From the NCBI RefSeq assembly GCF_024223415.1, contig NZ_CP100500.1: a DNA stretch of 64,000 bases; one strand, 5' to 3'. The number at the start of each line of letters is the position of its first letter. The stretch's first letter is position 1. This document shows, in pieces, positions 302 to 62,100 of this stretch. Source of the stretch: Escherichia coli. GTDB lineage: Bacteria; Pseudomonadota; Gammaproteobacteria; Enterobacterales; Enterobacteriaceae. Under the pieces are notes generated by a model. The model saw nothing but the letters and a program-made list of their open reading frames with translations. It was not told where the DNA came from and did no database searches. The translations under genes and the position numbers were made by a program.

Positions 302-1604
302 TGCTATTACAACAATAATTGGTGAACACTTGCTGATTAGAAATGGCAAATCTTCGCCATCAAGAGCCATAACAGGAGAATATCCTGTTTATGGTTCAAA
401 TGGAATAATAGGTTATTCAGATGAATATAACGCTAATGAAAATACAATAATTATCGGGCGTGTTGGGTCATATTGTGGTTCAGTTTATATTTCCGATAAA
501 AAATGTTGGGTCACTGATAATGCAATAATTGGAACCGCAAAGAATGAAAATGAAAGTCATTTTTGGTTCTATCTTTTAAAAAAAATAGATTTGAACAATT
601 ATAGTACTGGTTCAGGCCAACCTCTCATTAACCAAACAATAATTAATACAATATCCGTTACCATTCCTAAGCTCAGTGAGAAAAGAGTAGCCATTGGACA
701 TTTTTTACGCCACTTTGATCAAAAGATAAATTTATCTCTTAATATCAATCAATCCTTGGAACAAATGTCCCAAACCTTGTTCAAATCCTGGTTTGTGGAT
801 TTCGATCCGGTGATTGATAACGCGCTGGACGCGGGAAACCCAATCCCGGAAGCGATGCAATCTCGCGCAGAACTGCGTCAAAAAGTACGTAATAGTGCAG
901 ATTTTAAACCGCTTCTAGCGGAAATCCGCTCGCTTTTCCCAAGTGAATTTGAAGAAACCGAACCAGGATGGTTACCTAAGGGCTGGAAACATGGTAATTT
1001 AAATGATGTCACGAAGATCTTAAGTGGGTTTGCTTTTAAGAGTAAAGACTTTGGTGATGAAGGTAAAAGTGTCATAAAAATAAAGAACATTAATATCGAT
1101 AAAACAATTGATATAGATCATACTCAAAAAATTTCTGATATCGTAGCCAAAGACGTAAAGCGTTTTCAATTATTTGATGCCGATATTTTGATGGCTATGA
1201 CTGGTGCCACGGTCGGTAAATTTGGAATATTAGCATCAAAAAATCATGAAGAATATTATCTTAACCAACGAGTTGCGAAGTTTGAAACAGATAAAAAAGC
1301 TTACCTTTATTGTATATTGAATCAAGAAAGTACCGAAAGATTTATAATCAATACAGCTCAGGGCAGTGCACAACCAAATATCAGTGCTAAAGATATTTTA
1401 AGTATTCCACTCACACTACCATCAAACGAAATAATAACTATATTCAATACATTTGTTGATCCTTTATTCTACAGAATGATAGCGAATACAAAAGTTAGTT
1501 TAAGTCTAACAGAACTCCGCGACACCTTGCTCCCAAAACTCATCTCCGGCGAGCTCTCCCTGGAAGATCTTCCGGATCTCAGCACCAATACAGAAGCCGC
1601 ATAA
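291..1604 (+). CDS. hsdS: Type I R-M specificity subunit HsdS (two AT-rich target-recognition domains flanking a conserved central region)
   Basis: ORF track 258..1604; ATG at 291 overlaps the hsdM stop (preferred start, 258 is an alternative). Central conserved segment LFKSWFVDFDPV and C-terminal LPKLISGEL repeat typical of HsdS; TRD-like AT-rich blocks on both sides. Confidence 0.8.
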   Translation: MGSNAITTIIGEHLLIRNGKSSPSRAITGEYPVYGSNGIIGYSDEYNANENTIIIGRVGSYCGSVYISDKKCWVTDNAIIGTAKNENESHFWFYLLKKIDLNNYSTGSGQPLINQTIINTISVTIPKLSEKRVAIGHFLRHFDQKINLSLNINQSLEQMSQTLFKSWFVDFDPVIDNALDAGNPIPEAMQSRAELRQKVRNSADFKPLLAEIRSLFPSEFEETEPGWLPKGWKHGNLNDVTKILSGFAFKSKDFGDEGKSVIKIKNINIDKTIDIDHTQKISDIVAKDVKRFQLFDADILMAMTGATVGKFGILASKNHEEYYLNQRVAKFETDKKAYLYCILNQESTERFIINTAQGSAQPNISAKDILSIPLTLPSNEIITIFNTFVDPLFYRMIANTKVSLSLTELRDTLLPKLISGELSLEDLPDLSTNTEAA

Positions 1605-1612
1605 CGCATTTT

Positions 1613-1637
1613 GCCCCTGTAAAATCAGGGGCTTTCT
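1613..1637 (+). terminator. Stem-loop GCCCCTG-TAAAAT-CAGGGGC followed by TTTCT, immediately after hsdS stop
   Basis: Perfect 7-bp inverted repeat with 6-nt loop and short T-run seen directly in sequence; would separate hsdMS from hsdR transcription. Confidence 0.4.
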
Positions 1638-1698
1638 GGTAAGGTTTTCTACTGATACGGGAATGCTTACCAGAAATTAGCCAGGGTTGGAGCGCGAT

Positions 1699-4600: not shown

Positions 4601-4962
4601 AGGAAATGACCGATATTATCTATGATATTAAAACCGAAATGGGCACCTGGGCCGATTTAGGCATTGATATTGAAGAAAAAGCGTTTTTCGACATTCTTGC
4701 TCATATGCGCGATAAATATCAGTTCACCTATGACGATGAAAAAATGCTGTCACTGGCAAAAGAGATGAAAAGCGTGGTTGACAACACATCGAAATATCCT
4801 GACTGGAGTAAACGTGATGATATTAAAGCGAAACTGAAAGTTGAACTTATTCTGCTTCTACACAAGCATAAGTTCCCGCCAGTAGCGAATGATGATGTTT
4901 ATATGGGTGTGCTGGCACAGGCAGAGAATTTTAAAGAACACCATATGAGTGCTTTAAATTAA
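1699..4962 (+). CDS. hsdR: Type I restriction enzyme R subunit HsdR (PD-(D/E)xK nuclease plus SF2 helicase motor)
   Basis: ORF track 1687..4962 (TTG); ATG at 1699 with GGAG 7 nt upstream preferred. Motifs: nuclease LPLVVFEFK, helicase motif I GATGCGKS, motif II ISDEAHRSQ, motif III FTGTPID. About 1087 aa. Confidence 0.85.
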   Translation: MSLSFSEAKLEQAIIELLQDQGYQHLIGDNVPRSSLDQVIIEDDLRHYLAARYQPDGITEEEIQRLIKQFTTLPASDLYESNKTFCRWLANGFLFKRDDRQQKDLYIELLDTRHLPAALRQIFDTDDVPLQQAAELPPSYINPPLNRIKIVNQLKISGKDNQTRIPDGILYINGLPLVVFEFKSAVREQEASIGDAWKQLCKRYRRDIPQLFIYNALCVISDGVNNRMGNLFAPYEYFYSWRKVTGNENREQDGIPSLHSMIQGLFHPVRLLDVIKNFICFPDKAKHEVKICCRYPQYYAARKLYYSIKQARKPFGSGKGGTYFGATGCGKSYTMQFLTRLLMKSVEFASPTIVLITDRTDLDDQLSAQMCNAKNYIGDDTIVPVTSREDLRNQLAGRNSGGVFLTTIHKFTEDTELLSERSNIICISDEAHRSQVNLDQKVIVDKESGKVRKTYGFAKYLHDSLPNATYVGFTGTPIDATLDVFGEVIDSYTMTESVQDEITVRIVYEGRAAKVILDSSKLEEVEKYYEECANAGTNEWQIDESKKATATMNAVLGDEDRLKALAEDFAKHYEKRVDEGSTVKGKAMFVCASREIAWDFYRQLKAIRPAWFEVKQAPDGVVLTEQEQKELPPSEMVKMVMTRGKDDDEALYDLLGTKEYRKELDKQFKNAKSNFKIAIVVDMWLTGFDVPELDTIYIDKPLQKHNLIQTISRVNRKLEGKSKGLVVDYIGIKSQMNQALAMYSRIDATNFEDIQQSVIEVKNHLDLLGQVFYEFDSRDYFSGEPQAQLSCLNRAAEFVLRTQKVERRFMGLVKRMKAAYDVCCGSEALSQTERDYIHYYLAVRSIVFKLTKGDAPDVTQMNARVREMIAEALKADGVEEIYFLGDKKAESIDIFDEDYLARINKIKLPATKIQLLQKLLEKAISDFKKVNQLQGINFTRRFQAIIDRYNERREDDVLNGEEFDTFSQEMTDIIYDIKTEMGTWADLGIDIEEKAFFDILAHMRDKYQFTYDDEKMLSLAKEMKSVVDNTSKYPDWSKRDDIKAKLKVELILLLHKHKFPPVANDDVYMGVLAQAENFKEHHMSALN

Positions 4963-4969
4963 TTATGAA

Positions 4970-4995
4970 GGCCGGATACACTTTGTTATCCGGCC
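4970..4995 (+). terminator. Perfect palindrome GGCCGGATA-CACTTTGT-TATCCGGCC downstream of hsdR (terminator or REP-like hairpin)
   Basis: 9-bp inverted repeat with 8-nt loop seen in sequence 8 nt after hsdR stop; no strong T-run, so function uncertain. Confidence 0.35.
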
Positions 4996-5083
4996 ATTCT
5001 GAATTAACGTTAATTTCTCTTCCAGATCTTTCCAGTAACGCTTTTATTATTTTCTATTTTTAGCTGGACTATCCCTGTATTTA

Positions 5084-5099
5084 CTGATGATATATCCAG
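5084..5099 (+). promoter_or_regulatory. Putative LexA (SOS) box CTGATGATATATCCAG upstream of symE
   Basis: Matches CTG-N10-CAG architecture with AT-rich centre; symE is a known SOS-induced gene in K-12. Confidence 0.4.
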
Positions 5100-5103
5100 G
5101 TAT

Positions 5104-5181
5104 TTAGCGCGGTGCGGATGTGCGCCAACACACCCGCACCGCTCATCACAATCACTATTTTCAAGGAATAGCAGTTATGAC
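5104..5181 (-). ncRNA. symR: SymR antisense sRNA (antitoxin of type I TA pair symER); coordinates approximate
   Basis: By position only: region antisense to symE 5' UTR and start codon, includes inverted repeat GCGGTGCGG...CCGCACCGC (5108-5142). Ends not determinable from sequence. Confidence 0.35.
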
Positions 5182-5515
5182 TGACACGCATTCTATTGCA
5201 CAACCGTTCGAAGCAGAAGTCTCCCCGGCAAATAACCGCCAATTAACCGTGAGTTATGCGAGTCGCTACCCGGATTACAGCCGTATTCCCGCCATCACTC
5301 TGAAAGGTCAGTGGCTGGAAGCCGCCGGTTTTGCTACCGGCACGGCGGTAGATGTCAAAGTGATGGACGGCTGTATTGTCCTCACCGCCCAACCACCCGC
5401 CGCCGAAGAGAGCGAACTGATGCAGTCGCTACGCCAGGTGTGCAAACTGTCGGCACGTAAACAAAAGCAGGTGCAGGAGTTTATTGGGGTGATTAGTAGC
5501 AAAACGCCACGCTAA
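5177..5515 (+). CDS. symE: SymE, SOS-induced toxin-like protein (type I toxin-antitoxin)
   Basis: ORF track 5120..5515; internal ATG at 5177 preceded by AGGAA gives the 112-aa product [15 protein letters not shown]... matching my recollection of K-12 SymE. Confidence 0.85.
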
Positions 5516-5523
5516 GTTTCTCT

Positions 5524-5546
5524 CCCCTTCCCCATACGTGAAGGGG
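5524..5546. terminator. Hairpin CCCCTTC-(9 nt)-GAAGGGG between convergent symE and yjiS
   Basis: 7-bp inverted repeat seen in sequence between two convergent stop codons; no clear U-run on either strand. Confidence 0.3.
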
Positions 5547-48268: not shown

Positions 48269-49249
48269 ATGAACGCAATAATATCGCCTGATTATTACTA
48301 TGTTCTTACCGTTGCTGGTCAGTCTAATGCCATGGCGTATGGCGAAGGACTGCCATTACCGGACAGGGAAGATGCGCCTCATCCCAGAATTAAACAATTA
48401 GCGAGATTTGCGCATACGCATCCCGGAGGCCCGTCATGTCACTTTAACGACATTATTCCACTGACTCACTGCCCACACGATGTTCAGGATATGCAGGGTT
48501 ATCACCATCCTCTGGCAACGAATCATCAAACACAGTACGGCACCGTTGGCCAGGCACTGCATATTGCACGGAAATTACTGCCCTTTATTCCTGATAACGC
48601 AGGGGTTCTCATCGTTCCGTGTTGCCGTGGCGGATCGGCTTTTACCGCGGGCAGCGAAGGGACATATTCAGAACGGCACGGAGCCAGCCATGATGCTTGT
48701 CGTTGGGGAACGGATACTCCGCTATACCAGGATTTAGTCAGCAGAACGCGAGCCGCATTGGCAAAAAATCCGCAGAACAAATTCCTCGGCGTATGCTGGA
48801 TGCAAGGCGAATTTGACTTAATGACCAGTGACTACGCGTCACACCCTCAACACTTTAATCATATGGTTGAAGCCTTTCGTAGGGATCTAAAACAATACCA
48901 TTCTCAGCTTAATAATATTACTGATGCGCCCTGGTTTTGCGGCGATACCACCTGGTACTGGAAAGAAAATTTCCCTCATGCGTATGAAGCTATTTATGGC
49001 AATTACCAAAATAATGTTTTAGCCAATATTATTTTCGTCGACTTCCAGCAACAAGGTGAAAGAGGACTGACGAACGCGCCTGATGAAGACCCGGACGATT
49101 TAAGCACGGGATATTACGGTTCAGCGTACCGGTCACCGGAGAACTGGACGACGGCACTGAGAAGCAGCCATTTCAGCGCGGCAGCCCGTCGGGGGATTAT
49201 TTCTGACAGGTTTGTAGAAGCAATTTTGCAGTTTTGGCGCGAAAAGTGA
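48269..49249 (+). CDS. nanS: 9-O-acetyl-N-acetylneuraminate esterase NanS
   Basis: ORF track 48242..49249; start MNAIISPDYYYVLTVAGQSNA at 48269; about 326 aa. Confidence 0.85.
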   Translation: MNAIISPDYYYVLTVAGQSNAMAYGEGLPLPDREDAPHPRIKQLARFAHTHPGGPSCHFNDIIPLTHCPHDVQDMQGYHHPLATNHQTQYGTVGQALHIARKLLPFIPDNAGVLIVPCCRGGSAFTAGSEGTYSERHGASHDACRWGTDTPLYQDLVSRTRAALAKNPQNKFLGVCWMQGEFDLMTSDYASHPQHFNHMVEAFRRDLKQYHSQLNNITDAPWFCGDTTWYWKENFPHAYEAIYGNYQNNVLANIIFVDFQQQGERGLTNAPDEDPDDLSTGYYGSAYRSPENWTTALRSSHFSAAARRGIISDRFVEAILQFWREK

Positions 49250-49379
49250 GCGTTCATTAATTTGATTTATTCGCATCCATCAACGCTTTTAACTCCTCCG
49301 GCGTGCGGCACTATAACGACTTCCACAACAAGGAGCCATTTTCTTATACCACTTTCAGTGACCATCCGCTTATGCCACC

Positions 49380-49790
49380 ACCCTCTACGCAACTGTTTGC
49401 AGAGCACCTTCCCACCGAGTGGATACAGCACTTCCTGACGCTTTCTGCTCATGCGACCGTTCGTCGTCTTAACCTGAGCGTGGATGGCGAAGCGGGGATG
49501 AACCTGCTGGCGCCCGCAGCGCTGTCACCCAGGCGCGTCAGCGCGTGGGGGCCGCCCCGGTGGAATGGCTCTTCCGCCAGACCGCACAGACATGGGGCGC
49601 GGAACGTTACCTGAAGGATGACTGGCACGGCCTGCAACTTTTTGCCATTGATGGCGCACAGTTCAGGACACCTGATGAACCCGAGCTGCGTGAATATTAT
49701 GGCTCTGCCAACACATCCACTGAGCGGCAGAGCGCCTACCCCGTCATGCGTCTGGTGGCGTTAATGAATCTGGGAATCACATTCTACTGA
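49380..49790 (+). pseudogene. Remnant of an IS4-family transposase gene (N-terminal region, frameshifted and truncated)
   Basis: Two consecutive frames (49303..49614, 49545..49790) give ...TVRRLNL... and ...WHGLQLFAIDGAQFRTPDEPE...YPVMRLVALMNL, resembling the IS4 transposase N-terminal LTLLAIDGVFWRTPDTPE...YPQVKMVCQMEL region from memory; no intact ORF or terminal IRs seen. Confidence 0.45.
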
Positions 49791-50742
49791 ATGCCATGAC
49801 CGCGCCTACCAGCGGAGCGATACGGCGTGAGGCAACAAAAGCGGCGTCAGAGATCAGCTTTAAGTTCGCGTTCCAGTTTATCGTGACAGAAATGATAGTG
49901 CTGGGAAACACGGCGTCACCGGGGACTATCCCGAAACGACTGGAGCATCTGCGGGGGCTCTGGAAGTGGTGTTCATAACAAAACGCCCCCGACCATCAAG
50001 GGCGAGGGCGGTTAAGATATCAAAAACCCGTTATCCTGTGAAACACAGTGCCGCCCCGATTAAGTGAACGGCATTGTGTTTCTGAGGGACCTTAATTTTC
50101 CCTGATTCTCTGACGTTCCTTACCATTGATATTTCCTTCATTCCTCACCAGAGAAATAAAAAATCACTATACTCATCAAAATATGAGATTACCTTTATTC
50201 AGGTGATCACCTTACTATTTTTTACGGAAAATAAATTATGAATAACAAGAAATCACTGACAAACCACCTGTAAAATGTCAATCATTTTAGTTCAATTGCC
50301 TTTGTCATGATTATCTTTTTATCGTCCTGACGATACTATTAACAATTGCAATTTTTATACCCCTCCTGAACAAATAGAAAAGAACTAATATATTCGTTTA
50401 TAATTCTGGTAATCCTGGCATCATACGTTTAAAACTTAAGATATTTATTTTATCATCATCATGGTTCCAGAGACTATTGGTCAGCTGGAAATGCCAGCCT
50501 TTTCGTGCCAGCTATATTTGTCCAGTGTGTCACCCCATCCAAAAATCATCCACATCCTGACGTTACGTTAGATATAGAGAAAACAGGTTGTACTGTGCAA
50601 TATGCAAACCGCATAAGCGAATATAATTTCTAAGTTGATATTGTCTGGCTGTTGGGAGCTAAGCAATATAAATATCGCCAGTTGCCAGAACGGTTATATA
50701 GACCAGGAGCGTTTCGGCTCCTGGCCTGTTTTGGACATATTA

Positions 50743-52857
50743 TCAGTCAGCCACTAATAGCGGACTAGGGACACCAGATGATGAAACAAACAGCCCTTTT
50801 ACGGCACGGGTTGCAGCCACATGCAGTAACGCGCGCTCATTAAATAATGCATCACGCTGTTCAACGGGATCATCGGATGCTAATGCTTTTATTTCCGGCA
50901 CAACGCCTTCGTTAATCCCCACCAGGAACACATACTGGAACTCAAGCCCTTTAATACGGTGCATCGTTGCAACCCGCACGCCAGGGCGTGCATCGCTGTC
51001 ACCGCTATCATTGCCTAAATTAAATGTCTCAATTCCGGCGTCATTCAGTGCTGATGCGTAGCGGTCACAAGCATGTTTAGTACGCGCAGTAATGCAGATA
51101 TCCTGAGAACGAACCTGATTCGCCAGCAATGCCTGAATTTGCTTGACGAGCGTTGCAGCCTCTTCTTTGAAATCTGCCGCATGCGTAATCATGGGCTTTT
51201 CCCCGTGCAGTAATGACAAATAATCATTACTGGTATCCGCTTCGCCATCGAGGTTATCAACCTTCACACCAGTTAACAGCCCAACAGCAAATTGACGCGT
51301 CTCTTCTGTGGTCCGATAGTTAATCTTCAATTTTTTACTGCGACGACCACGGACGTTAATACCACACTGACCAAGAACGACCTTATTGCGATAAATACGC
51401 TGATGCCCATCCCCGACAATAAACAGATCGTTGGGCGACTCGGGAACCAGGCTGCGAATAAGAGTAAATGCCGGGGCACCGATATCTTGAGCTTCATCGA
51501 CCACAATACTGCTATAAGGTAGTTGGACCTGCTTTTCTTTAAACAGAACAATAGCCTCATGCATGGCATCGCCCATTTCGCGCAGTTTGGCACGCGCCAT
51601 TTGTGCTCTGAATTCTTCAAAGACTGGCCAGATTTTCGCCCGTTGAATACGGGATAACGCTGTACCACGTCCAACCCGGCTGACTTTGAGGTATTCCTCC
51701 CGGGTGTAAACCGCATTTGGCTGGACAACGCGTTGCCACTCTTCAGCATAGAAATTATCAGGTAGCCCCAGTTCGGCAGGTGCCTGCTGCAAGGCATAGT
51801 TCCAGCATTTGCGTCGCCCTTCATCGCTGTCGTATACCACGCGGAAATCATAACCGTGGCGTTTTAGTTGGTCGCTCATCCAGGCATCAATGTTAACGAC
51901 GTCAATACGCGCCATCTCTTCTCGCGTACACAACCGCTGGAGATTAGCGCGAATATCTGCCGCCAGGTTACGCGTAAAGGTCGTGAAAAGTACCTTCTTA
52001 CCGGGTTTATCTGCCAGACGCTGAGATAACCACCGCGCACGGTGCATCGCAACAACCGTTTTCCCTGTACCTGCACCGCCCAGTACTCGTACCGGACCAT
52101 TAGCGGGCGACTCCACCAGTTTTCGCTGGCTCGGATGCAGAAATACACGCCATTTTTCTAAAGGCGCATTAAGCATCTGCAACAGCTCCTGTTCATTTTC
52201 AACGACATGGAAGCGACGTTTACTTCGTTCAATCGCCTCCATAAAGTCGTTGGTATCAACAGGCTCATCACGATGATCGTTAAACTCTTCCAGCACTTCC
52301 TGGTAATCCAGCCCTTCTGCCAGCCAGTGCAGAGGTTCCCAGGCTTCTGCTGGCATTATGCTTTCAAGTTGGTTAAGCCCGGCTTCATCGGTAAGCGCCA
52401 TCACCTGATCAATAAAGACAGGCGGCACGCCCAGGGCCAGAATCTGTTCCGCGCTGTAAGCCGCGAAGAGTTTCGGTTTATCAACCACCGCTTCCGGTGC
52501 CGGTTTGATATAGCTAATATCAATAACCTGAATCGCGCCGGTAACTGGGTGAATCGAACAATCATGCCGCCGCGCCCAGTCGTATGCTTCGTCGTGTTTA
52601 TCCACCCACATCAGCATATACAGGGCACCCTGTTCAGGTTTCAGAACAATGCCGCGATAAGTTTGATCGATTCGCACCGAATGGACATTTTTACTGCGCG
52701 CATCGTGGATCTTTTCATAGTTAAGTCCATTACTGGTCGGGTCCTGACGGAATTTGGAGATGAATTCCTGCACCTTTTTTTGCTGTGCTTTTGGGATCCG
52801 CGCGAATGCGCCCAGAAAACCATCAGAAAGTGCCACCTTGGGCGTTTGCACCGTCAT
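50743..52857 (-). CDS. UvrD/Rep-like SF1 helicase (704 aa) with about 250-aa N-terminal domain of unknown function; third gene of candidate defence operon
   Basis: Walker A LGGAGTGKT (aa 259-267), Walker B/motif II VVDEAQD, C-terminal motif MHRIKGLEFQYVFLV typical of UvrD/PcrA family; ATG overlaps upstream gene stop (ATGA at 52854-52857). Confidence 0.85.
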   Translation of the reverse strand: MTVQTPKVALSDGFLGAFARIPKAQQKKVQEFISKFRQDPTSNGLNYEKIHDARSKNVHSVRIDQTYRGIVLKPEQGALYMLMWVDKHDEAYDWARRHDCSIHPVTGAIQVIDISYIKPAPEAVVDKPKLFAAYSAEQILALGVPPVFIDQVMALTDEAGLNQLESIMPAEAWEPLHWLAEGLDYQEVLEEFNDHRDEPVDTNDFMEAIERSKRRFHVVENEQELLQMLNAPLEKWRVFLHPSQRKLVESPANGPVRVLGGAGTGKTVVAMHRARWLSQRLADKPGKKVLFTTFTRNLAADIRANLQRLCTREEMARIDVVNIDAWMSDQLKRHGYDFRVVYDSDEGRRKCWNYALQQAPAELGLPDNFYAEEWQRVVQPNAVYTREEYLKVSRVGRGTALSRIQRAKIWPVFEEFRAQMARAKLREMGDAMHEAIVLFKEKQVQLPYSSIVVDEAQDIGAPAFTLIRSLVPESPNDLFIVGDGHQRIYRNKVVLGQCGINVRGRRSKKLKINYRTTEETRQFAVGLLTGVKVDNLDGEADTSNDYLSLLHGEKPMITHAADFKEEAATLVKQIQALLANQVRSQDICITARTKHACDRYASALNDAGIETFNLGNDSGDSDARPGVRVATMHRIKGLEFQYVFLVGINEGVVPEIKALASDDPVEQRDALFNERALLHVAATRAVKGLFVSSSGVPSPLLVAD

Positions 52858-55800
52858 TTGTCACCTCCGGACAGATGTTGCAATGTATTTTCGTCAATTG
52901 GCCCGAATGCAACGTGCCAACCTCTGGTTGTGAATAATGGAATAAATTCTTGATTATCAATAATCAATGCCCATTTTTGTGATGGCCAGGCGAGATCGGC
53001 TTCCGCAATAATTTCACCTTCATCATTTTGCAATTCGTAGCCGAGAGTCGGCGCAGAGAGAGAATGAGACTGAAGCAACGCGATCTCTTCAGCGCTTAAT
53101 AAGCCAAACTCAATAATCTCAGCCCAACTCTCATCAGTCTCTGGTACTGCCTCTGGCGTTGCCGAAACTTTAGTGTCAACGCTTTCCTGCGGTAAATGCA
53201 CGGCTTTACGGCTGGTAAAGGTCATATCCGGCAGGAACTGTAACAGGTTTACCAGTCGCCAGAAGCCATTGAGTCCCGCTTCATAACCGTCATCCTGCGT
53301 ATAGCGATCGTCAAAACAGATATGCAAACGCAGCCAGCTGCGCATTTGTGCGACGCTGGTCGTCGGTTTAATGGCTTGTTGTGGCAACACCGAAGCCAGC
53401 TCAATAAATTGCTGCGATGAGTTACAGCTATCGAGTAAACCACCAAAGACAAACGGTTCGTCTGGCAAAAGCTCTGCTAGCCGCCAGGCTGGCGCGTTTT
53501 CCTGCATTTCATAGGCATACTTTTGTTTCGTTCCCGCGTCCTGTGACTTCTTCACATCCAACCACACCCAGGCATGTGCAGCAGCCATTCTCTGCCATAA
53601 CTGCGTTCTTCCGCCCGGATCGGCGAGATAATCCAGCAGCAGTGCAAAACTGTTGCGTTCCCGGAACGACGCTTCAAGGGCCGCAAAGTTGGTATCGTGA
53701 AACAGGTTATAAAACTTAGGCTGTTTCATATCCGGGTTATGCCCAAGTCCCAGGACATCCTGAACATGTTTAAGCCCAGGCTCTTTGAGATCGGCCCACG
53801 TGACTGTCCACACCCAGAAATTACCGCTATCCCGAATCGCCTGGCGTTTTTGCACATCCTCTGCGACGCTATTTTTGTGGAACGCAAAGCCATCAAGGAA
53901 AATAGCCACCGGTTTAATGACATCAGACTGCATAAGCGGATATAGCACGTAATCCGGGCGACAAGGGATCCCCACCGCCTCTTTAGCGCCTAAATCCACC
54001 TGAGCTTTAAGATGCCAGCTCATCATCGGTTCGCTGCGGGTGTTAATAATCCACCCAGCGCCCTGATGCGCGTAACTGCGACTGACAATCAGGTTTTTAT
54101 TTTCTTGCAGGCAGCTAATAAACCGTTTTTCCAGCTCACTGCCCATCATGGCTTCGAGGGAAATGTTTTTGATGGAATCAATTACCCGTATCGAATCTCT
54201 TGCCTGCAAAATTTTCGCCAGCAAGAGACGCGCCTGATCGCGGGAGACATACTTCATGCGCCCACGGTCACGGTAAGCGTAAACGCAACGATAACAACCA
54301 TCTTTATGCGTATCATTGTTGCAACTGCATTCCACTATTGCCTGATAGGCCAGTTCAAGTAATTTCAGCAAATTGTCGGGAGTGCGCATCAGCTCTTTAA
54401 GAGAACCAGTTCCCCCCGGGACGGTATCGTAAATCACCAGATACTGCCTCCAGGATTCGCCTTCATTTTCCGGCTCGCGGTACACAACGCCTTTCAGGTG
54501 ATCGACATTCCCCTTGAAGTAATGTTTAAGGCCGAGCTGGATCGCCGCCCCAAGAGAAGCCTCCACGACACGGTCATTACTGTAACTGCTTACCGGGAGC
54601 AGAATACGCAACGCTTCTGACTCCAGCTGGCGATAGAGATAGAGATAATCTTCGAACTTCGCCTTTTCCGGTTCCGTGCGATATTTGCAGCTCAAATCAT
54701 GACGTGGTTCATGATCGCGAGGACGCTGCACCATGCCGCACCCGAGGCAAACTTTAAACCCGGTTCGCTTCTTCGCTTCTCCGGCAATCATCAACTCATT
54801 GGCATCATCCGCCATTTTGCCGAAGTTGATATCCCGCAGGGTGACTTTGCTTAAAAATTCAAAACCAAACGGAACTTCGCCTTCCTCAATCGCGTATGCC
54901 GCCGATACATCTTCTTTTTCGAAACTAACCAATAGCTGACGCTGGAAGAAAGCAGGTTCACGGCTGTCGCTATCGTCGCTGATCTGGCTATCACGTGCGC
55001 TGGCGCGGGCATAAACCTGGCGAAGTTTCAGCAGCGTGGTTTTTTGTCCGGCATCGGCCCACCCCGGTGTGCCACATTTCGGGCAATATTTATGCTGGTC
55101 GCCCGTCTGGTCGATATTTTCGCTGTAGTTACAGTGGCTACAGATACGCCAGTTCTCCGGCTCAGAGACCTTCAGGTCTATCTGCTCAATTTCAACTTTA
55201 TGCCCACCGGCATAGAAATTATTCAGCGGAGCCAGCTCAGCCAGCGCCGTTGATGCCGGGCGTTCATATTCGAAAGTGGTGTTTTGATATTCACGCGCTT
55301 CCCCGCCTTCTTTACGCCGCCAGAGCACAGAACGTAACGTAATACCGGCTTCCGGGAAGGCGTAGTTAGGCAGCAGACCTTCATCCGTGAGGAAATTCAG
55401 CGTTTGCTTATTGTTGATTTGATTGACCAGCGCCATCAGCGCCTGCCGTTCTGAAGTCAGTTCGCGCATATCGCTGTCAAAGTTTTGATCGCGCGGCGCG
55501 TTCTCCAGTTTATCGATGCTGCGCTTGAGTTTATCGATGCGTGAGCGCAAAGATTTGCGATCTTCCACCAGCAGTTTTAACGCTTCTTCGATACGCTGCA
55601 CCAGCGAACGTTGCCCTGGCGCGCCCTGAAGATAAGACAACAGCTGTTGGCGAGTTTCTGCGGCAAGATCGGGGAAGATCGCCGTAAATTGTGCAGCAAT
55701 CTCCGCATGATGCTGTTCGATATATCGCAGTAAGTTATACGGAAAACCCGATTTACGCCCGAACTCCAGCTCATCCAGCATCTGTTTGACGTTTTTACAG

Positions 55801-58800
55801 ATAGCGGATTCTGGTACACCGGTTTTCACCCAGTTATCCATACAAAAAGCTGCCAGCTGGCGTTCGAGAATAGCCGTTGCATTGAGGAAGACGCCAGGAG
55901 CCTGCACCTGGCCCTGCATCATCTCCAGCGGTTCTTCAAAGAAAAACTGATCGTGCGGGTTCCCTTCTGCCACGGTAATGTTTAACGCGTTACCATCTTT
56001 ACGACCGGCGCGACCAATACGCTGCAAGTAGTTGGCCTGAGCAGGTGGGACAGAACAGAGTAAAACGGTGGAAAGATCGCCAACGTCAATACCCATCTCC
56101 AGCGTCGGTGTTGCCGACAACAGGTTGATATTCCACGGTTGGTTGCCGCGGTAGAACGATTTTTCGGTGGCTTCGCGATCTTCACGGCTAAGCAGCCCCG
56201 TGTGTTCTGCGCCCTGTACGCGCGCGATGTCCATGTTCTCCCAACGCCAGGTCGCCGTATTGTCGACTTCCTGGTAACGACCTTCACAACGTAAAGAGAG
56301 ACAAGGCGCATTACGCCACTGCCAGCCTTGATCGGCCGGAGCCCGGACAACCTCACGGCAACATGAACAATTAAGCTGAACGACGTCACGGCTCACCACC
56401 AGCGCCGAAGGCACCAGTCCCCAGGCTTCACGCCCTTTGGTGTCAAAATCTTTTACTACTCCGGCTATTTTCAACGCCGTAAACAGGCGTCGTAACACTG
56501 TTTCCGCAACGCTACTGATAAACAGATTATTGCCGTTACTCAGCGTGCGATTGATCCAATGCTGATACCAACTGGGGTTAGACTTCGCGCCAATCAGGCG
56601 ATGGAAACCATTAATTTTTTCAAACGACGCATAAGCCGGTTTACGCGTTTTCGGACCGATAGAAGGCATATAGCGCGAGGTACGCTCTTTTTGCGTCATC
56701 ATAAAGGTCGTGCCATCACGGCGATAACTTTCGAACGCCGGATGCATAACGGCCCCGGCCTGGCGTTGATACCAGATAACCCCCAGCGCCAGGTGCGCGA
56801 CCTGCTCGACGCTCACACCGGACATCTCATCACCCAGCTCTTCACAAAGCTGTTGATGCAGGGCGGTAATTGCCGGATTAAAGCGTTCTTTATCCACTCC
56901 GGCAACGGCATAACCGGTGGCTTCCAGCGTACGTCCGATACGCGCGCGCAGGGTGAATTCGCTGTACACCTCCCAGTCGAGGCGCAGGGAAACCAGCTCC
57001 GGCAGATCGGAGTTCTCCGCCAGTTTGCCTTCATTTTTCAGCATCTGATAATCATTCAGCCACTGCATATTTGGTGCGATGAAGTTCGCTGCAAAATGAG
57101 CATCGTCCGGTGAACGTTCACGCGTTTGTTGGCAAACACGCGCCGCGAACGCATCCAGCGGTAATGTCTCTTTTTCGCCAAGAACACTGGCGATTTGCCC
57201 ACGAATCATCAGCGGCCAGGTACGGGCAGTAAAGAAGCTGGCACGATGCGCGGCGTCTTGTACCGAGTCAGAAAACGTAATCAGCTTTTTATGTTCGTTG
57301 AACTGGCTGCCATAAAGCTGGTGAATCATCACCGCCGACAAACTGGCAGCCCGTGACCCCAGGATCGAAATCCCCTGTTTGCTGTTGCAGTACGGGCATT
57401 CATTAGCAAACTCCAGCTCGTCCTTACGCTCTTTGAGCATATCCGGGATCAGTACCTGCAACAGTTCCGTATGACCGCAATGTCCACACTGGACGCTGGA
57501 CTGTCGGTTCAGTTTCAGACAGGTAGGACACAGTTTCTGGTGTGCGCCACTGACCGCTTTTTCGTTGTTATCCGGGAAAGCAAGGACGATGGAGCGTCCT
57601 TTTTCAAAGAACTGGCGATAAATGCCGTCGAGGTCTGTTTCCAGCTGAACGCTTTGCCCATGACGCAGGCTGGCCCAGCCAGTTGCGTGGCAGTCACGGC
57701 AGTGGATAACCGGCAAATAGTGTTCGCGATCTTCCACCGCCACATCATCGGCAAACACCAGTCGGGGCGTTTTCGCCACGCTGGCGACCAGACGACGCAT
57801 CTCACGAAGCCACAACTGGGAGCGCAGTTGCACAAACGGCAGCACCGGACGCGCTTTCTTCGCCTGGAGACGTTTTTGCCGATCGTGTTCCGTTTCCGGT
57901 ACTTCGAGACGTGCCTGTGCGATCAGCGCCAGAATGCTTTGCAGCACGCGTCGGGCATGGTCGGCGCTTTCTGCCAGCATGACCTGGAGATTTTCCAGAC
58001 ACTCTCGTTCAGAGAGGATCCCGCCTTGCAGATCATGGAGTAAGACATGCATCACGCTGTGGCGGCGTAACAGTGACCCCAGCGCAATACGCTTTTCACG
58101 CCCGTCGTCGCTCTCCAGATCGTCCGGGAGTTGCAAGTCGCTGTCGGGGAACCACAAAGGGATTTGCCCGTTAAGATACGCTACCGGGGTAGCGTAACTC
58201 TGCGGGTCCAGGGCCGAAGCGACCTCCGGCCCCGGATACTGACTGTACGCAATGGCGTAATCCTGCAAGTACTCCGCTGCCGTGTAGCGATCTTCGCGAA
58301 TAACGGCGTCATCGGTAAACGGCTGGTCAAAGATTGTTTTTGCGTAATCGAGCAGTTGCCCCAGCTCGTCGCCGACGGTAGCTGATGTCCCGACGCAGGC
58401 GAATCGTTGGTTATCTACACCTATGTGATGCTTCAGACGTCGCACCAGACAGGCCAGATCCGACCCTTGCGCGCCATCAAACGTATGCAATTCATCCACG
58501 ACCAGGTAACGCAATGAACCGGGCTGGTTGTAACGCCAGAGCGGCTGATCGCCAGGGCGCATCAGCAGGTAGTCGAGCATTTTGTAGTTGGTCAACAGGA
58601 TGTCCGGCGGGCTTTCGCGCAGCGTGTGCTTGCAGGTAATGACCTTTTCTGCCGACATTTTTTTGCTGGGTTCGATTTCGCTGTCGCCGACAAACAGGCC
58701 GACGGTCACCTTGCCATGCAGTTGTGTATCGCTGGCGATGGTTTTGGCGAAACGGCTGGCCTGATCGGTTGCCAGGGCGTTCATCGGGTAGATGATAATC

Positions 58801-59195
58801 GCTTTAACCCCGGCTTGTGACGCGCCCGCGCAGTGGTTGAGCAGCGGGAACATAAAGCATTCTGTTTTACCGGAGCCGGTACCGGTAGCAACCAGCGTCG
58901 GCTGTGGCGCGTCGCTTCCCAGACGCTGAAATGCCCGGGCCTGATGCGCGTGCGGCGGGAACGGCAGCGTCAGATTAGGGAAGAAATTCAGCGGTAAGTC
59001 ACTTTTACGAAACGGCAACTGGGCGGAAAGGTATGGTCCTTTCAGCAGCGTTTCGGGCTGGGCCAGAAATTGCTCCAGCATTGAGACATTATCGTTATTC
59101 TCACCGTTAAACAGCGGACTGTTTAGCGGGAACGCCGCCCGTAAAAAGGCGGCAACGCTGTCGGCGACCTGCCGACTGACAACGGATGGCAGCAT
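52854..59195 (-). CDS. Giant multidomain SF2 (DExH, Lhr-like) helicase, 2113 aa, with zinc-ribbon/Cys clusters (DUF1998-like) and C-terminal Vsr/DUF559-like endonuclease motif; second gene of candidate defence operon
   Basis: Motif I ATGTGSGKT (58863-58883), Ia YPMNALATDQ, II VVDELH (58485-58496), V LEMGIDVGD and VI QRIGRAGR about 800 aa later; Cys clusters CSHCN...CPKCG and CSC...DGCYRC; FLDGFAFH...RQAIRDSG near aa 1740-1800 (about 53796-53978); start codon overlaps stop of upstream gene. Confidence 0.85.
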   Translation of the reverse strand: MLPSVVSRQVADSVAAFLRAAFPLNSPLFNGENNDNVSMLEQFLAQPETLLKGPYLSAQLPFRKSDLPLNFFPNLTLPFPPHAHQARAFQRLGSDAPQPTLVATGTGSGKTECFMFPLLNHCAGASQAGVKAIIIYPMNALATDQASRFAKTIASDTQLHGKVTVGLFVGDSEIEPSKKMSAEKVITCKHTLRESPPDILLTNYKMLDYLLMRPGDQPLWRYNQPGSLRYLVVDELHTFDGAQGSDLACLVRRLKHHIGVDNQRFACVGTSATVGDELGQLLDYAKTIFDQPFTDDAVIREDRYTAAEYLQDYAIAYSQYPGPEVASALDPQSYATPVAYLNGQIPLWFPDSDLQLPDDLESDDGREKRIALGSLLRRHSVMHVLLHDLQGGILSERECLENLQVMLAESADHARRVLQSILALIAQARLEVPETEHDRQKRLQAKKARPVLPFVQLRSQLWLREMRRLVASVAKTPRLVFADDVAVEDREHYLPVIHCRDCHATGWASLRHGQSVQLETDLDGIYRQFFEKGRSIVLAFPDNNEKAVSGAHQKLCPTCLKLNRQSSVQCGHCGHTELLQVLIPDMLKERKDELEFANECPYCNSKQGISILGSRAASLSAVMIHQLYGSQFNEHKKLITFSDSVQDAAHRASFFTARTWPLMIRGQIASVLGEKETLPLDAFAARVCQQTRERSPDDAHFAANFIAPNMQWLNDYQMLKNEGKLAENSDLPELVSLRLDWEVYSEFTLRARIGRTLEATGYAVAGVDKERFNPAITALHQQLCEELGDEMSGVSVEQVAHLALGVIWYQRQAGAVMHPAFESYRRDGTTFMMTQKERTSRYMPSIGPKTRKPAYASFEKINGFHRLIGAKSNPSWYQHWINRTLSNGNNLFISSVAETVLRRLFTALKIAGVVKDFDTKGREAWGLVPSALVVSRDVVQLNCSCCREVVRAPADQGWQWRNAPCLSLRCEGRYQEVDNTATWRWENMDIARVQGAEHTGLLSREDREATEKSFYRGNQPWNINLLSATPTLEMGIDVGDLSTVLLCSVPPAQANYLQRIGRAGRKDGNALNITVAEGNPHDQFFFEEPLEMMQGQVQAPGVFLNATAILERQLAAFCMDNWVKTGVPESAICKNVKQMLDELEFGRKSGFPYNLLRYIEQHHAEIAAQFTAIFPDLAAETRQQLLSYLQGAPGQRSLVQRIEEALKLLVEDRKSLRSRIDKLKRSIDKLENAPRDQNFDSDMRELTSERQALMALVNQINNKQTLNFLTDEGLLPNYAFPEAGITLRSVLWRRKEGGEAREYQNTTFEYERPASTALAELAPLNNFYAGGHKVEIEQIDLKVSEPENWRICSHCNYSENIDQTGDQHKYCPKCGTPGWADAGQKTTLLKLRQVYARASARDSQISDDSDSREPAFFQRQLLVSFEKEDVSAAYAIEEGEVPFGFEFLSKVTLRDINFGKMADDANELMIAGEAKKRTGFKVCLGCGMVQRPRDHEPRHDLSCKYRTEPEKAKFEDYLYLYRQLESEALRILLPVSSYSNDRVVEASLGAAIQLGLKHYFKGNVDHLKGVVYREPENEGESWRQYLVIYDTVPGGTGSLKELMRTPDNLLKLLELAYQAIVECSCNNDTHKDGCYRCVYAYRDRGRMKYVSRDQARLLLAKILQARDSIRVIDSIKNISLEAMMGSELEKRFISCLQENKNLIVSRSYAHQGAGWIINTRSEPMMSWHLKAQVDLGAKEAVGIPCRPDYVLYPLMQSDVIKPVAIFLDGFAFHKNSVAEDVQKRQAIRDSGNFWVWTVTWADLKEPGLKHVQDVLGLGHNPDMKQPKFYNLFHDTNFAALEASFRERNSFALLLDYLADPGGRTQLWQRMAAAHAWVWLDVKKSQDAGTKQKYAYEMQENAPAWRLAELLPDEPFVFGGLLDSCNSSQQFIELASVLPQQAIKPTTSVAQMRSWLRLHICFDDRYTQDDGYEAGLNGFWRLVNLLQFLPDMTFTSRKAVHLPQESVDTKVSATPEAVPETDESWAEIIEFGLLSAEEIALLQSHSLSAPTLGYELQNDEGEIIAEADLAWPSQKWALIIDNQEFIPLFTTRGWHVAFGPIDENTLQHLSGGDK

Positions 59196-62100
59196 CAGGC
59201 GTTCTCCTTATCTTGTGCAAAGAACGCCCAGGCCACTTTGTAGTCGTCTTCGCGATCTGGCTTGATAAACGGAGCCTGCCAGGTGACGGTGCGGCGCTCG
59301 CCTTCGTCGCTGCGGGTATAGTCATCAAAGGTGACGCTGACGGTACCGGTTTTCAGATGTTTGACATCATCCCAGCCGATGGCTTGATCGGTGCAGTCAC
59401 CGCCGGTCCACTCCGGGCTGTCGACGTTAAAGACAAAGCTGTTTTTCAGATCAGCTTTACGGGCGGTACGCGGCAGACCGACGCCCACCAGCCCTTTGCT
59501 TGGGGTAAAGATGATGCGGCCGTTTTGGTCGTACCAGGTGTCCGCTTCGTACTGGCGCATCACCGGGAACTGTACACGGTAAATGGTAAGCAGCTCTTCG
59601 AGAGTTAACCCCAGCGCCTGTGCCACCAGCACGTCGATTTCCACCAGCGCCTGACGACGACTGTAGTCGGAGCGTAAGGCGCAGTTACGCTGCCACTCTG
59701 GGGTCAGATTGGTGAAGAAATCTTGTGGCAGCAGCGGGAGATCGCGGCTCCAACGCTGGGTGTTGAAGTCTGGGGTGTAGCAGGATTGCCAGAGATCGGC
59801 GTAATCTTTCGTTAACACATTCAAAGCTAATGCTCTTGAGTTTGCACTCATTAGCTCAACATAAGGGAAGCCACGCAATGTTGATTCATAAACATCCGCC
59901 CGTCCTGTTGTTTTCAAATAAAAATCAGCCACTATTGAATGGCAAAATGCAGAGAAACTTAGCAGGTTTATTGGCTCTCTAAATGTTGTTGAGAGTACAG
60001 GGTGTATATGAGCAACGTGCTTTGGAACTATGCTGGATATCATCGAGCGTTCTGATGATGCCCCAAACATTCTCCGATTAACAAAACGATAATAATCCGT
60101 CACCTTCCTCGGCTCGTCTTCATCCTGCTCTTTCCACGAAACCCGTGGGGTGCGCTTTGCATACTCCTGTGCATCACATGCCGGAATGTAGTTAGTTCGC
60201 GGCAGGTAATCGTCGGGCAGGGTTAATAAATCAAGGCAATCATAATGGCTATTTGCCTCACAGAGAGCTCTTGGTGTCTTATTGAAAGGATTACCCACGA
60301 AGAAATGGGGACCAGACAATACCCATTGAGAAGCATCTTTTGGATACATTGTTTTACGCTCGATAGTGCCATCAATTTGCTGATTTGTTTCATGCCACAT
60401 TTCCAGAGAAAAATACTGGCCTTGCAAATCGCCTAATCGCTTCGGCTGATTGGCAAATTTTTCCAATACCGCGACAAGTTGCTCTGCGTGCAAAGCGGGA
60501 AGACGAGCCTGTAATGCTGGCGTGTCGGGTTCATCATACAAACGAGCAAATAAAGCTAGCTGCTCTTTCGTGACACGAATAAGCCTGGATTTATGACCTT
60601 TAGTATTCCATCGGCTATAGTAAACATCTTTTATATAACCTTCTTCCTTAATGCCACCAACCAATCCATCACCTGAATGCTCAAAACTCTCATCAAGAGT
60701 TGAAGGAATAAAAAGATTATTAATATTAATAAACTCCACGTCGTTCGATTTGGTCATAGAGTAAACATGTGTCCCAAATTTCATTCGACCGTGATCATTT
60801 GTTCCAACAAATAGAGAAAACTCATTTTGATATTGGCAATGTAGACGTAACCTTGGATAGATCTCTTCTCTGAAGAGCCCTCCCTTAGGATCGTCATATA
60901 CCCCCTCTGGGTGAACAAATCCTGCCACGCCTTTCTCTGCCCCCAGACGCCAGGCCTGAGGCAGGAAGCATTTATACAAGTTGGTCTGCACCCCGCGCAG
61001 TACCGGGTAGTTTTGCTGCGCATTGAGGAAGTTTTGCATCCCTTCACAGCCTTCATACTCGCTGCGCCAGGCCGCTTCCAGCGCCGGGATCTGGTTAAAG
61101 GTATCAATACGCAACGTTGCCAGCTTCGATGCACTCAGCTTACGCAGCACAAATTCCGGCTCGTAATCACCCAGCACGCCCGCTTCCTGCCATTCCACTT
61201 TCAGCCACGGCGGGTTTCCGAGCATCAGGTCAAAACCGCCGCGCTCGGCAAACAGGTCGCAGAACTCCAGATCCCAGTGGAAGAAACGGTGCTGCTTTCT
61301 CAGGGCATCGACAATCGCCAGACGCGGCAAATGGCGGAACAGCACATCGGTTTTCAGACGACCAGCAACGGAAAACAGCGAAGACTCTTCTCGCAGCAGG
61401 CCTTCTTCGGCAAACAGATCGCCAGTAGTGCGCTCCGCAACTTCAGTGACTTTTTCCGTAATCACAATCCCGTCGAGCAGGGTTTCAATCTCAAACAACC
61501 AGGTACCGCGATCCGGTAACTCATCGGCTTTGTCGATCGGCCAGAACCACAGCGCGCACCAGTAGTCCATCACCCAACGCAGCTTCTGGTAGGCGCTGTT
61601 ATCTTCAAGACGACCGCTAAAGGTTTCATCTTTACTGCTCAGCGAAGAACGCGTCTGCTCGCTGTTTTCTGCCGGCCACACCGGGTAGCTGTCGGCGGTT
61701 TTCAGACGTTCTGCTTTAAGTTGCTGGCGATAGGTGTTCCACAGTGCTTCCACCTTTTCGCTGATACGCTGCACATCAGCAATCTCATGCCCGGCAAAGC
61801 TTTTAATAAACTCTTTGCGCCAGCTGTCCAGCGCTTTGAAGTCATCCGGATAACGCTGCTTAACAGTTTTATCGCTGTAGTTAGCCATACCGCCGTCGGG
61901 CAGCAGGAAGTGGAAAATCTGCGTCTCTTCACGCGGCGTGTTCATCGCCAGTTCGACCGGCTCGCTGTTAAGCCAGCTAGGATCTTTGGCTTTTTTGTAG
62001 GTCAGTTCGCTCTTGTTGAACACCTGACGGCGCGCGCCCACCAGCGAGTTACCGCAGTGCAGCTGGTAACCAAACCACGGTACAAAGGCATCGCCACTGA

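Follow-up and report, generated by a model that had tools for sequence, protein, structure and literature searches.

The locus described here raises the question of which system a 2113-residue helicase-like protein of Escherichia coli belongs to, and how it would act. An earlier note, made from the sequence alone, had read the protein as a helicase with a split RecA2 domain, several cysteine clusters and a C-terminal nuclease-like module, and had likened this architecture to DruE of Druantia and DrmAB of DISARM. The window analysed is a stretch of 64,000 nucleotides (contig NZ_CP100500.1 of assembly GCF_024223415.1). According to its open reading frame listing, the gene is a single frame, ATG to TGA, of 2113 codons on the minus strand, and it must be real since such an open length is far above chance in DNA of ~50% GC. 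All of the motifs listed in that note were found in the translation at the places claimed for them. The features of the locus are collected in Table 1.

Table 1. Features of the armBCD locus and domains of ArmC (window coordinates).
Feature	Residues	Coordinates	Strand	Basis or remark
armD, UvrD/GajB-like helicase with weak RelE-like N-terminus		50743..52857	-	Pfam, PADLOC, PHROG
armC CDS, YprA-family helicase-nuclease of ARMADA type II	2113 aa + stop	52854..59195	-	
RecA1 lobe, motifs I (K110), Ia, II (D234 in DELH), III (TSAT 270-273)	about 80-290	58326..58958	-	
All-helical insertion after RecA1	about 300-445	57861..58298	-	helices 306-444 in model
Beta-rich zinc-binding module	about 450-611	57363..57848	-	model strands 451-611; C499/C502/C600/C603, C556/C559/C570/C573
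RecA2, probable first segment	about 612-672	57180..57362	-	model and invariant residues; assignment inferred
Second insertion, inside RecA2: helical domain and beta zinc module C943/C946/C965/C970	about 675-985	56241..57173	-	model
RecA2, second segment, motifs V and VI	about 990-1100	55896..56228	-	Pfam Helicase_C
Helical/coiled-coil linker	about 1105-1270	55386..55883	-	weak coiled-coil-type Pfam matches about aa 1192-1266
OB-CON-DUF1998 "canopy"	about 1271-1640	54276..55385	-	Pfam MZB; Cys columns at least 90% conserved
Vsr/DUF559-like PD-(D/E)xK nuclease domain	about 1680-1805	53781..54158	-	candidate catalytic E1689, D1748, D1768, H1773, D1780, R1784
Conserved middle domain: helical bundle and small alpha/beta unit	about 1810-2015	53151..53768	-	Q1986 invariant
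Terminal domain, AEADLAWP motif, degenerate Vsr-like without DG..H	about 2020-2113	52857..53138	-	PADLOC, BLASTP, hhalign
armB, PglX/DrmMI-like N6-adenine methyltransferase		59195..64000	-	first ~42 codons past window end

Identity and genome context of armC

The product has the same length as ECs_5263 of E. coli O157:H7 Sakai and differs from it at nine of 2113 residues (99.6% identity), none of the nine substitutions falling at conserved motifs. K110 and D234, the positions mutated in published work, are both present. Orthology to the experimentally tested ArmC is based on this comparison with the Sakai protein, the accession given in the preprint being WP_000937974.1. At the DNA level armC is 100% identical to that of E. 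coli NCTC10444, and it was found in 525 of 5426 complete E. coli genomes (about 10%) as well as on some plasmids. We consider it practically certain that the gene encodes E. coli ArmC, a component of ARMADA type II, an anti-phage system made up of four genes (armA-armB-armC-armD). As the system was described and tested in two 2025 preprints, this finding is already known; our reading adds no new system, and it independently reproduces the domain architecture published for the ArmC family by Bell et al. (10.1101/2025.09.15.676423). The earlier proposal of a DruE/DrmAB-like architecture was correct as to the closest defence profiles, the best PADLOC matches being those of DruE (E 4.6e-104), but the system itself is ARMADA type II and neither Druantia nor DISARM.

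Both ends of armC overlap its neighbours, as expected for an operon: the armB stop overlaps the armC start (TGATG) and the armC stop overlaps the armD start (ATGA). The gene order is that of ARMADA type II, namely a BrxHII/Snf2-like helicase, a PglX-like methyltransferase, a YprA-like helicase and a GajB-like helicase with a RelE-like N-terminus. The armB translation (1643 aa in the genome record) carries an NPPW motif, and matches the PADLOC profiles of type IIG RE-MTase (E 4.3e-289) and DrmMI (E 3.8e-57). ArmD combines the Pfam UvrD-helicase and UvrD_C domains with a match to PADLOC GajB (E 2.5e-36) and a weak RelE-like PHROG match at residues 8-92 (E 0.0034). The armA gene of this strain, located outside the window, has a 1-nt deletion and is frameshifted in the assembly, so that either ARMADA II may be inactive in this strain or the deletion is an assembly error. 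In the genome annotation the arm genes are found downstream of Druantia III (DruH-DruE) and Zorya II, with DruH paired to a different, 2104-aa helicase upstream of armC. armC is located inside a mobile island (SpLE6 in Sakai), flanked by Zorya, Druantia and the remnant of an IS element.

Helicase core and zinc-binding insertions

ArmC belongs to the YprA/MrfA (DUF1998) family of SF2 helicases, and both zinc-binding and helical insertions break up its RecA lobes. The core that had been proposed from motifs was recovered by Pfam as DEAD at residues 84-278 (E 2.6e-22) and Helicase_C at 993-1066 (E 1.2e-10). Motifs I-VI of the DEAD/DEAH type, a feature of YprA/MrfA-like DUF1998 helicases, are in place, including GTGSGKT (105-111, motif I), YPMNALA (136-142, Ia), DELH (234-237, II), LEMGIDVGD (1032-1040, V) and QRIGRAGR (1058-1065, VI), and RecA1 has invariant residues. 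Since the Helicase_C match covers only positions 40-109 of the Pfam model, the first third of this domain must be elsewhere in ArmC. In the AlphaFold model of residues 1-1130 (pLDDT 89.4), whose top Foldseek match is MrfA (6znp, E 1.4e-8), residues 612-672 adopt a helix-strand-helix arrangement and contain the invariant G613, F641, D643, V645, Q646 and R665; we infer that they form the first segment of RecA2. Together, the model and the conserved residues support the earlier suggestion of a split RecA2, interrupted by a predicted insertion of ~320 residues. In the nomenclature of Bell et al. (10.1101/2025.09.15.676423) the helical insertion behind RecA1 is BrxA-like, the helical domain inserted in RecA2 is MarR-like, and the linker region contains an HTH with a coiled-coil finger.

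The cysteine-rich regions proved to be conserved rather than of low complexity. The clusters are HCRDCH (498-503), CPTCL (556-560) with CGHCGH (570-575), CSCC (943-946) with CLSLRC (965-970), CSHCN (1352-1356) with CPKCG (1371-1375), and CSCN (1623-1626) with DGCYRC (1632-1637). Among 41 homologues (35-52% identity) C499, C502, C600 and C603 are invariant, and conservation is 90% or more in the columns of C556/559/570/573, C943, C965, the 1352-1374 ribbon and the 1623-1637 cluster. Within the canopy we distinguish zinc ribbons (C1352/C1355/C1371/C1374 and C1483/C1486/C1503) and the DUF1998 cluster proper (C1623/C1625/C1634/C1637). The DUF1998-like domain anticipated from the last cluster was detected by Pfam as MZB (DUF1998, PF09369) at residues 1549-1638 (E 7.3e-13); such a four-cysteine zinc domain toward the C-terminus is a trait of YprA/MrfA-like proteins.

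C-terminal nuclease-like region

The helicase is fused to OB-CON-DUF1998 and, further downstream, to a Vsr/DUF559-like PD-(D/E)xK domain with an intact and invariant acidic/His set. The earlier note had pointed to a Vsr/DUF559-like nuclease on the basis of FLDGFAFH (1766-1773) and RQAIRDSG (1784-1791). The candidate catalytic residues of this domain are E1689, D1748, D1768, H1773, D1780 and R1784, and none of them varies among 43 homologues at 23-37% identity. The assignment held at the level of fold and motif register but failed at the level of profile detection: Pfam identified no Vsr/DUF559 domain in the C-terminal 474 residues (E <= 10) nor in the 43 homologues, with the single exception of an MTES_1575 match (E 0.088). 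Likewise, nothing relevant emerged from PDB sequences by hmmsearch, whether the profile covered the entire C-terminal region or just the Vsr-like core. The C-terminal model had no Foldseek match in PDB below E 0.2, PHROGs did not match this region, and neither the Vsr-like nor the middle domain, when searched individually, had a significant match in PADLOC or NCBIfam.

The nuclease assignment is based on fold similarity and motif conservation, not on sequence-profile matches. The C-terminal model resembles PD-(D/E)xK folds, not PLD, and in an hhalign comparison with Vsr the residues D1748 and H1773 fall on Vsr D51 and H69, with a probability of only 6.8%; the Vsr alignment used was shallow (the homologue search gave only sequences at least 80% identical). 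D1768 stands at the site of Vsr His64, with Asp there as in DUF559 proteins. The predicted fold and the equivalent catalytic Asp and His suggest that this domain belongs to the Vsr-like PD-(D/E)xK branch, and it is predicted to be active. Bell et al. (10.1101/2025.09.15.676423) likewise predicted that ArmC carries an active Vsr nuclease at its C-terminus, and interpreted the middle domain as an inactivated EEP domain.

A terminal domain common to ArmC and ZorE

Judging from sequence comparisons, the last ~90 residues of ArmC, with the motifs AEADLAWP (2064-2071) and ALIID (2076-2080), share homology with the ZorE C-terminus, and this holds across both families. The domain matches positions 282-357 of the PADLOC ZorE2 profile (E 5.3e-11), and the same model is matched by the terminal domain in 10 of 10 diverse ArmC homologues; in BLASTP it is 40% identical to ZorE of the same island (E 8e-8). 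W2070 is invariant among homologues, and hhalign relates the domain to Vsr with a probability of 55%. No PADLOC defence protein model besides ArmC (ARMADA II) and ZorE (the Zorya II effector) has this domain, and a database search with its alignment yielded only short ArmC-like or ZorE-like fragments and no new architectures. The homology is apparently unreported. That it reflects a common docking or regulatory module, e.g. a handle that recruits its bearer to the same DNA intermediate or to the ZorAB tail, is a doubtful conjecture; if true, it would give the conserved Zorya II - Druantia III - ARMADA II array a physical basis. The common domain is a concrete lead on cross-talk within the island.

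Published function and proposed mechanism

The experiments reported for ARMADA in preprint form were carried out with O157:H7 strains NCTC 12900 and EDL933, and with ATCC 8739. Deletion of any arm gene abolished defence, as did each of the ArmC substitutions K110A (Walker A) and D234N (Walker B); the armC deletion was complemented in EHEC, and ArmD was needed for full defence. The defence is direct and non-abortive. ARMADA alone, on a plasmid, protects BL21-AI in the absence of Druantia and Zorya, and ARMADA II synergises with Druantia III. The deletions altered phage sensitivity, not growth. As no toxicity was reported upon loss of armB, the system cannot yet be taken for a simple restriction-modification system.

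We propose that ArmC would load where phage DNA is single-stranded and translocate in an ATP-driven manner, as MrfA, DrmAB and DruE do, and that the Vsr-like domain would then nick or cleave the DNA fed by the motor. Substrate recognition, autoinhibition or partner docking might be the task of the zinc modules and of the pair of degenerate domains at the C-terminus, while methylation by ArmB, together with ArmA and ArmD, may provide self/non-self discrimination and remodelling. A helicase-coupled Vsr nuclease effector is the mechanism that we favour, with some reserve. Taken as a whole, the reading of this protein as ArmC, the central protein of ARMADA II, acting in the way outlined, is the best explanation, at a probability of about 0.7.

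A different division of labour, which we consider unlikely but worth weighing, would make ArmC mainly a sensor or translocase whose Vsr-like domain binds DNA or regulates without cutting, the damage being inflicted by ArmD, ArmA or the co-resident DruE or ZorE. Two of the three C-terminal domains do look catalytically dead, ArmD has its weak RelE-like N-terminus and is required for full defence, and the synergy with Druantia III would fit. However, the acidic and His residues in the first of the Vsr-like domains do not vary even at an identity as low as 23%, as expected of an active site; the plasmid-borne system protects a host devoid of Druantia and Zorya; and non-abortive defence argues against an RNase-toxin effector.

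It is highly improbable that armC is a second DruE functioning as part of the neighbouring Druantia III, as might be suspected from its best PADLOC profiles, from the co-oriented DruH-DruE pair 8 kb upstream, and from the synergy of the two systems. ArmC and the resident DruE share only 34% identity in RecA1 and 23% over aa 997-1662, the BLASTP alignment stops at aa 1662 leaving unrelated C-termini (PLD in DruE, Vsr-like in ArmC) unaligned, translational coupling ties armC to armB and armD, plasmid-borne armABCD is protective by itself, and its deletion phenotype is distinct from that of druHE. Druantia membership is largely refuted by the published single-system constructs. Still less probable is that armC encodes an MrfA/YprA-type helicase for housekeeping DNA repair, without a role in defence: the nearest solved structure is indeed the mitomycin-repair helicase MrfA, and Vsr is itself a repair nuclease, but the limited distribution of armC, its position inside a mobile island and the effect of the published deletions on phage sensitivity and not on growth speak against it, and the phage assays refute it. 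Overall, operon partners, C-terminal domains and published genetics lead us to reject Druantia, DISARM and housekeeping repair as identities. In E. coli O157:H7 and strains related to it, ARMADA II counts among the systems that contribute most to phage resistance; this, together with its synergy with Druantia III, makes it relevant to phage therapy.

Comparison with known systems

The closest counterpart, Sakai ECs_5263, shares with the ArmC described here the operon order, the island and the series of domains (RecA lobes with insertions, DUF1998, Vsr-like tail); the present assembly differs from the Sakai-type locus by the 1-nt deletion in the upstream armA. DruE of Druantia III (2104 aa in the resident copy) resembles ArmC in size, in its YprA-family core, in similar RecA-lobe insertions and OB-CON-DUF1998, and in the fusion of a helicase to a C-terminal nuclease. 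Unlike DruE, which ends in the two tandem PLD-like domains of type III, ArmC ends in Vsr-like domains. Its partners also differ: DruH for DruE, versus a methyltransferase, an Snf2-like and a UvrD-like helicase for ArmC, with the methyltransferase and the UvrD-like helicase as the coupled flanking genes in place of DruH, DruA-D or DruM/F/G.

With class 1 DISARM the correspondence is ArmA to DrmD, ArmB to DrmMI, and ArmC to DrmA plus DrmB; the helicase family, the DUF1998 domain and the adenine methyltransferase partner are alike. In ArmC, however, helicase and DUF1998 reside in one polypeptide encoded by one ORF instead of separate genes, the fused Vsr-like domain replaces the PLD protein DrmC (the operon lacks a PLD gene), and ARMADA II has an extra UvrD-like ArmD. 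PADLOC DrmA profiles match ArmC only at aa 981-1088. The Bacillus subtilis YprA protein MrfA, the best structural match to the N-terminal model, has the same SF2 core and four-cysteine DUF1998. On the other hand, it has only about 750 residues, is devoid of the inserted zinc and helical domains and of the fused nuclease, and acts with a separate exonuclease, MrfB, in repair and not in defence. Finally, the series RPD[FY]V ... [LF]xDG..xH ... D..KR ... W is one that ArmC has in common with the Vsr/DUF559/I-Bth0305I branch, although it is missed by the Pfam Vsr and DUF559 HMMs and its nuclease-like domain is fused to a helicase rather than free-standing.

Identity of the 2113-residue helicase

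The minus strand carries at 52854..59195 a single open reading frame of 2113 codons, in the translation of which all motifs quoted in an earlier note, based on sequence reading, occupy the positions assigned to them there (see table). The stop codon of the upstream gene (armB) overlaps the armC start (TGATG), and the armC stop overlaps the start of the downstream armD (ATGA); armB, armC and armD are thus translationally coupled genes of one operon. The identification has been reported before: two preprints name this block as ARMADA type II, an anti-phage system of four genes, armA to armD (Bell et al., bioRxiv 10.1101/2025.09.15.676423; Li et al., bioRxiv 10.1101/2025.09.22.677730). The former describes ArmA as a BrxHII/Snf2-like helicase, ArmB as a PglX-like methyltransferase, ArmC as a YprA-like helicase and ArmD as a GajB-like helicase with a RelE-like N-terminus. 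Compared with Sakai ECs_5263, the ArmC encoded in the window has 9 substitutions in 2113 positions, all outside conserved motifs, and its K110 and D234 are the positions mutated in the published ArmC, which identifies it as the same protein. The only points beyond the literature are a terminal domain common to ArmC and ZorE (the Zorya II nickase of the same island) and the candidate nuclease residues.

The ARMADA II cluster of E. coli NCTC 12900 gives non-abortive defence against 13 of 80 phages, for which every gene is required and which ArmC K110A and D234N abolish (Bell et al., 10.1101/2025.09.15.676423); deletion and complementation of armC in EDL933, and a synergy with Druantia III, were also reported (Li et al., 10.1101/2025.09.22.677730). 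Family membership, the operon, the ATPase-motif requirement and non-abortive protection are therefore established for ArmC. In the strain analyzed here armA, located outside the window, is 1 nt shorter in a CCC run than in a strain that is nearly identical elsewhere. As all four genes are required for defence, the system could be inactive in this strain; an assembly error from long reads would explain the deletion just as well.

Features of the armC region (window positions unless marked; L002, the stretch that holds zorE)
Feature	ArmC residues	Nucleotides	Remark
armB		59195-64000	annotated 1643 aa; first ~42 codons missing, runs past window end
armD		50743-52857
Helicase motif I	105-111
Helicase motif Ia	136-142
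Helicase motif II	234-237
Helicase motif V	1032-1040
Helicase motif VI	1058-1065
Cys clusters	498-503, 556-575, 943-970, 1352-1375, 1623-1637
FLDGFAFH	1766-1773
RQAIRDSG	1784-1791
AEADLAWP	2064-2071
Terminal domain	2020-2113	52857-53138	~90 residues
zorE		L002 20899-22002
Truncated nanS, frameshifted transposase		48491-50100
nanM fragment		L002 22226-22474
hsdM (partial), hsdS, hsdR, symE		1-5529	symE after the hsd operon
SymR		5106-5182	Rfam RF01809
Pentapeptide-repeat gene		14143-16491	782 aa

Genomic context and distribution

The armC DNA matches E. coli NCTC10444 at 100% identity. Of 5426 complete E. coli genomes, 525 contain a copy with ≥95% identity, in 15 cases on a plasmid, and the protein cluster at 90% identity comprises 3981 proteins of Escherichia, Klebsiella, Salmonella, Citrobacter and Enterobacter, the sole name given to them being "DEAD/DEAH box helicase". 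In the genome annotation, zorA2, zorB2 and zorE, divergent from the genes after them, are followed by a STY4851/ECs_5259-family gene (DruH) with a 2104-aa helicase (DruE), a DEAD/DEAH helicase, a 1643-aa methyltransferase, armC (2113-aa helicase), a 704-aa UvrD-like helicase, and then an IS remnant, truncated nanS, nanM, nanC and the fim genes. The equivalent block in O157:H7 Sakai (ECs_5256-5264) lies within the "phage-like element SpLE6" adjoining leuX. The truncated nanS (sialate O-acetylesterase) and the frameshifted transposase form the island boundary on the armD side, and a stray nanM (N-acetylneuraminate epimerase) fragment lies past zorE; these remnants suggest that the island was inserted into the nan locus.

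Several other features were observed. The N-terminus of ArmD (aa 8-92) has no Pfam match and a weak one to a RelE-like toxin (phrog_1213, E 0.0034), consistent with the published label. A GTG start listed for armB at 63967 is a window-edge artefact. The window begins with a type I restriction-modification operon, followed by the toxin gene symE, whose antisense RNA SymR scores 91.7 bits. The pentapeptide-repeat gene lies in the part of the window with the lowest GC content (34% vs ~50%), suggesting horizontally acquired DNA.

Helicase core and DUF1998 domain

The Pfam analysis of ArmC detected DEAD (84-278), Helicase_C (993-1066, covering just model positions 40-109 of 110) and, in agreement with the DUF1998-like domain read from the sequence, MZB/DUF1998 (1549-1638). 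Among PADLOC models the DruE profiles were at the top (E 4.6e-104), with matches to DrmA, DpdJ, BrxH and Cas3 confined to the RecA lobes. An AlphaFold2 model of aa 1-1130 (41 homologues; mean pLDDT 89.4, pTM 0.89) had the DUF1998 helicase MrfA as its closest PDB match, followed by RIG-I-like helicases. The modelled secondary structure, together with invariant residues in the first segment (G613, F641, D643, V645, Q646, R665), suggests that RecA2 starts at about aa 612-672 and, after a break of ~320 residues, resumes at about aa 990, the exact boundaries being approximations from the same two sources. C499, C502, C600 and C603 are invariant, and most other Cys sets are at least 90% conserved. 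By virtue of the partial Helicase_C match, the model and these conserved residues, the split RecA2 with Cys4 clusters proposed in the earlier note is borne out. In the published AlphaFold3 models, RecA1 is followed by a BrxA-like domain, and RecA2 contains a zinc beta-barrel together with a MarR-like domain; next come an HTH with coiled coil and OB-CON-DUF1998, and the C-terminus consists of a Vsr nuclease predicted to be active and, after it, EEP and Vsr domains described as inactivated (Bell et al., 10.1101/2025.09.15.676423).

Predicted Vsr-like nuclease domain

With aa 1640-2113 as query, phmmer returned 948 relatives library-wide, most of them ~2100 aa long and aligned across the full 470 residues at 26-40% identity. 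Neither Vsr nor DUF559 was found by Pfam in ArmC or any of 43 homologues aligned from this set, and neither PDB sequence searches with the C-terminal region nor Foldseek on its confident AlphaFold2 model (aa 1640-2113, pLDDT 87.6) gave a significant match. The hhalign comparison with a Vsr alignment, statistically weak at 6.8% probability, sets RPDYV...IFLDGFAFH on RPDFV...IFTHGCFWH of Vsr, with D1748 on D51 and H1773 on H69. Invariant across the 43-homologue alignment are S1686, L1688, E1689, F1692, D1748, D1768, H1773, D1780, R1784, Q1986 and W2070. Standard profile searches being negative, the predicted Vsr-like assignment thus draws its support from the fold, the motif register and the conserved residues; the Vsr/DUF559-like tail of the earlier note holds in these respects, though not as a DUF559 profile match. 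Overall, the observation made in that note is confirmed and its interpretation supported, the system name and the DUF559 detection excepted.

ArmC would translocate along single-stranded phage DNA in the manner of MrfA, DrmAB and DruE, its Vsr-like domain would cut the translocated DNA, and ArmB, ArmA and ArmD may supply discrimination and remodelling. The main alternative is a Vsr-like domain without catalytic activity, the effector being some other component; the invariance of the acidic and His residues in the domain makes this less likely.

Terminal domain shared with ZorE

The second stretch pointed out from sequence, AEADLAWP...ALIID, proved to belong to a real conserved domain of ~90 residues at the very C-terminus. 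Of the 5027 PADLOC models, this domain matched the C-terminal end of ZorE2 alone (positions 282-357 of 375, E 5.3e-11), and it is 40% identical to the ZorE of the same island across 57 residues. Termini of diverse metagenomic ArmC-like proteins matched the identical ZorE region and no other model in 10 of 10 cases. Judging from these alignments, ArmC and ZorE are homologous over their C-terminal ~90 residues, a relationship mentioned neither by Bell et al. (10.1101/2025.09.15.676423) nor in the Zorya and ARMADA papers examined. The hhalign probability against the C-terminal half of Vsr was 55%, and the DG..H motif is absent from the domain. A Vsr-related terminal domain devoid of DG..H fits the description "inactivated Vsr" given by Bell et al. 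(10.1101/2025.09.15.676423).
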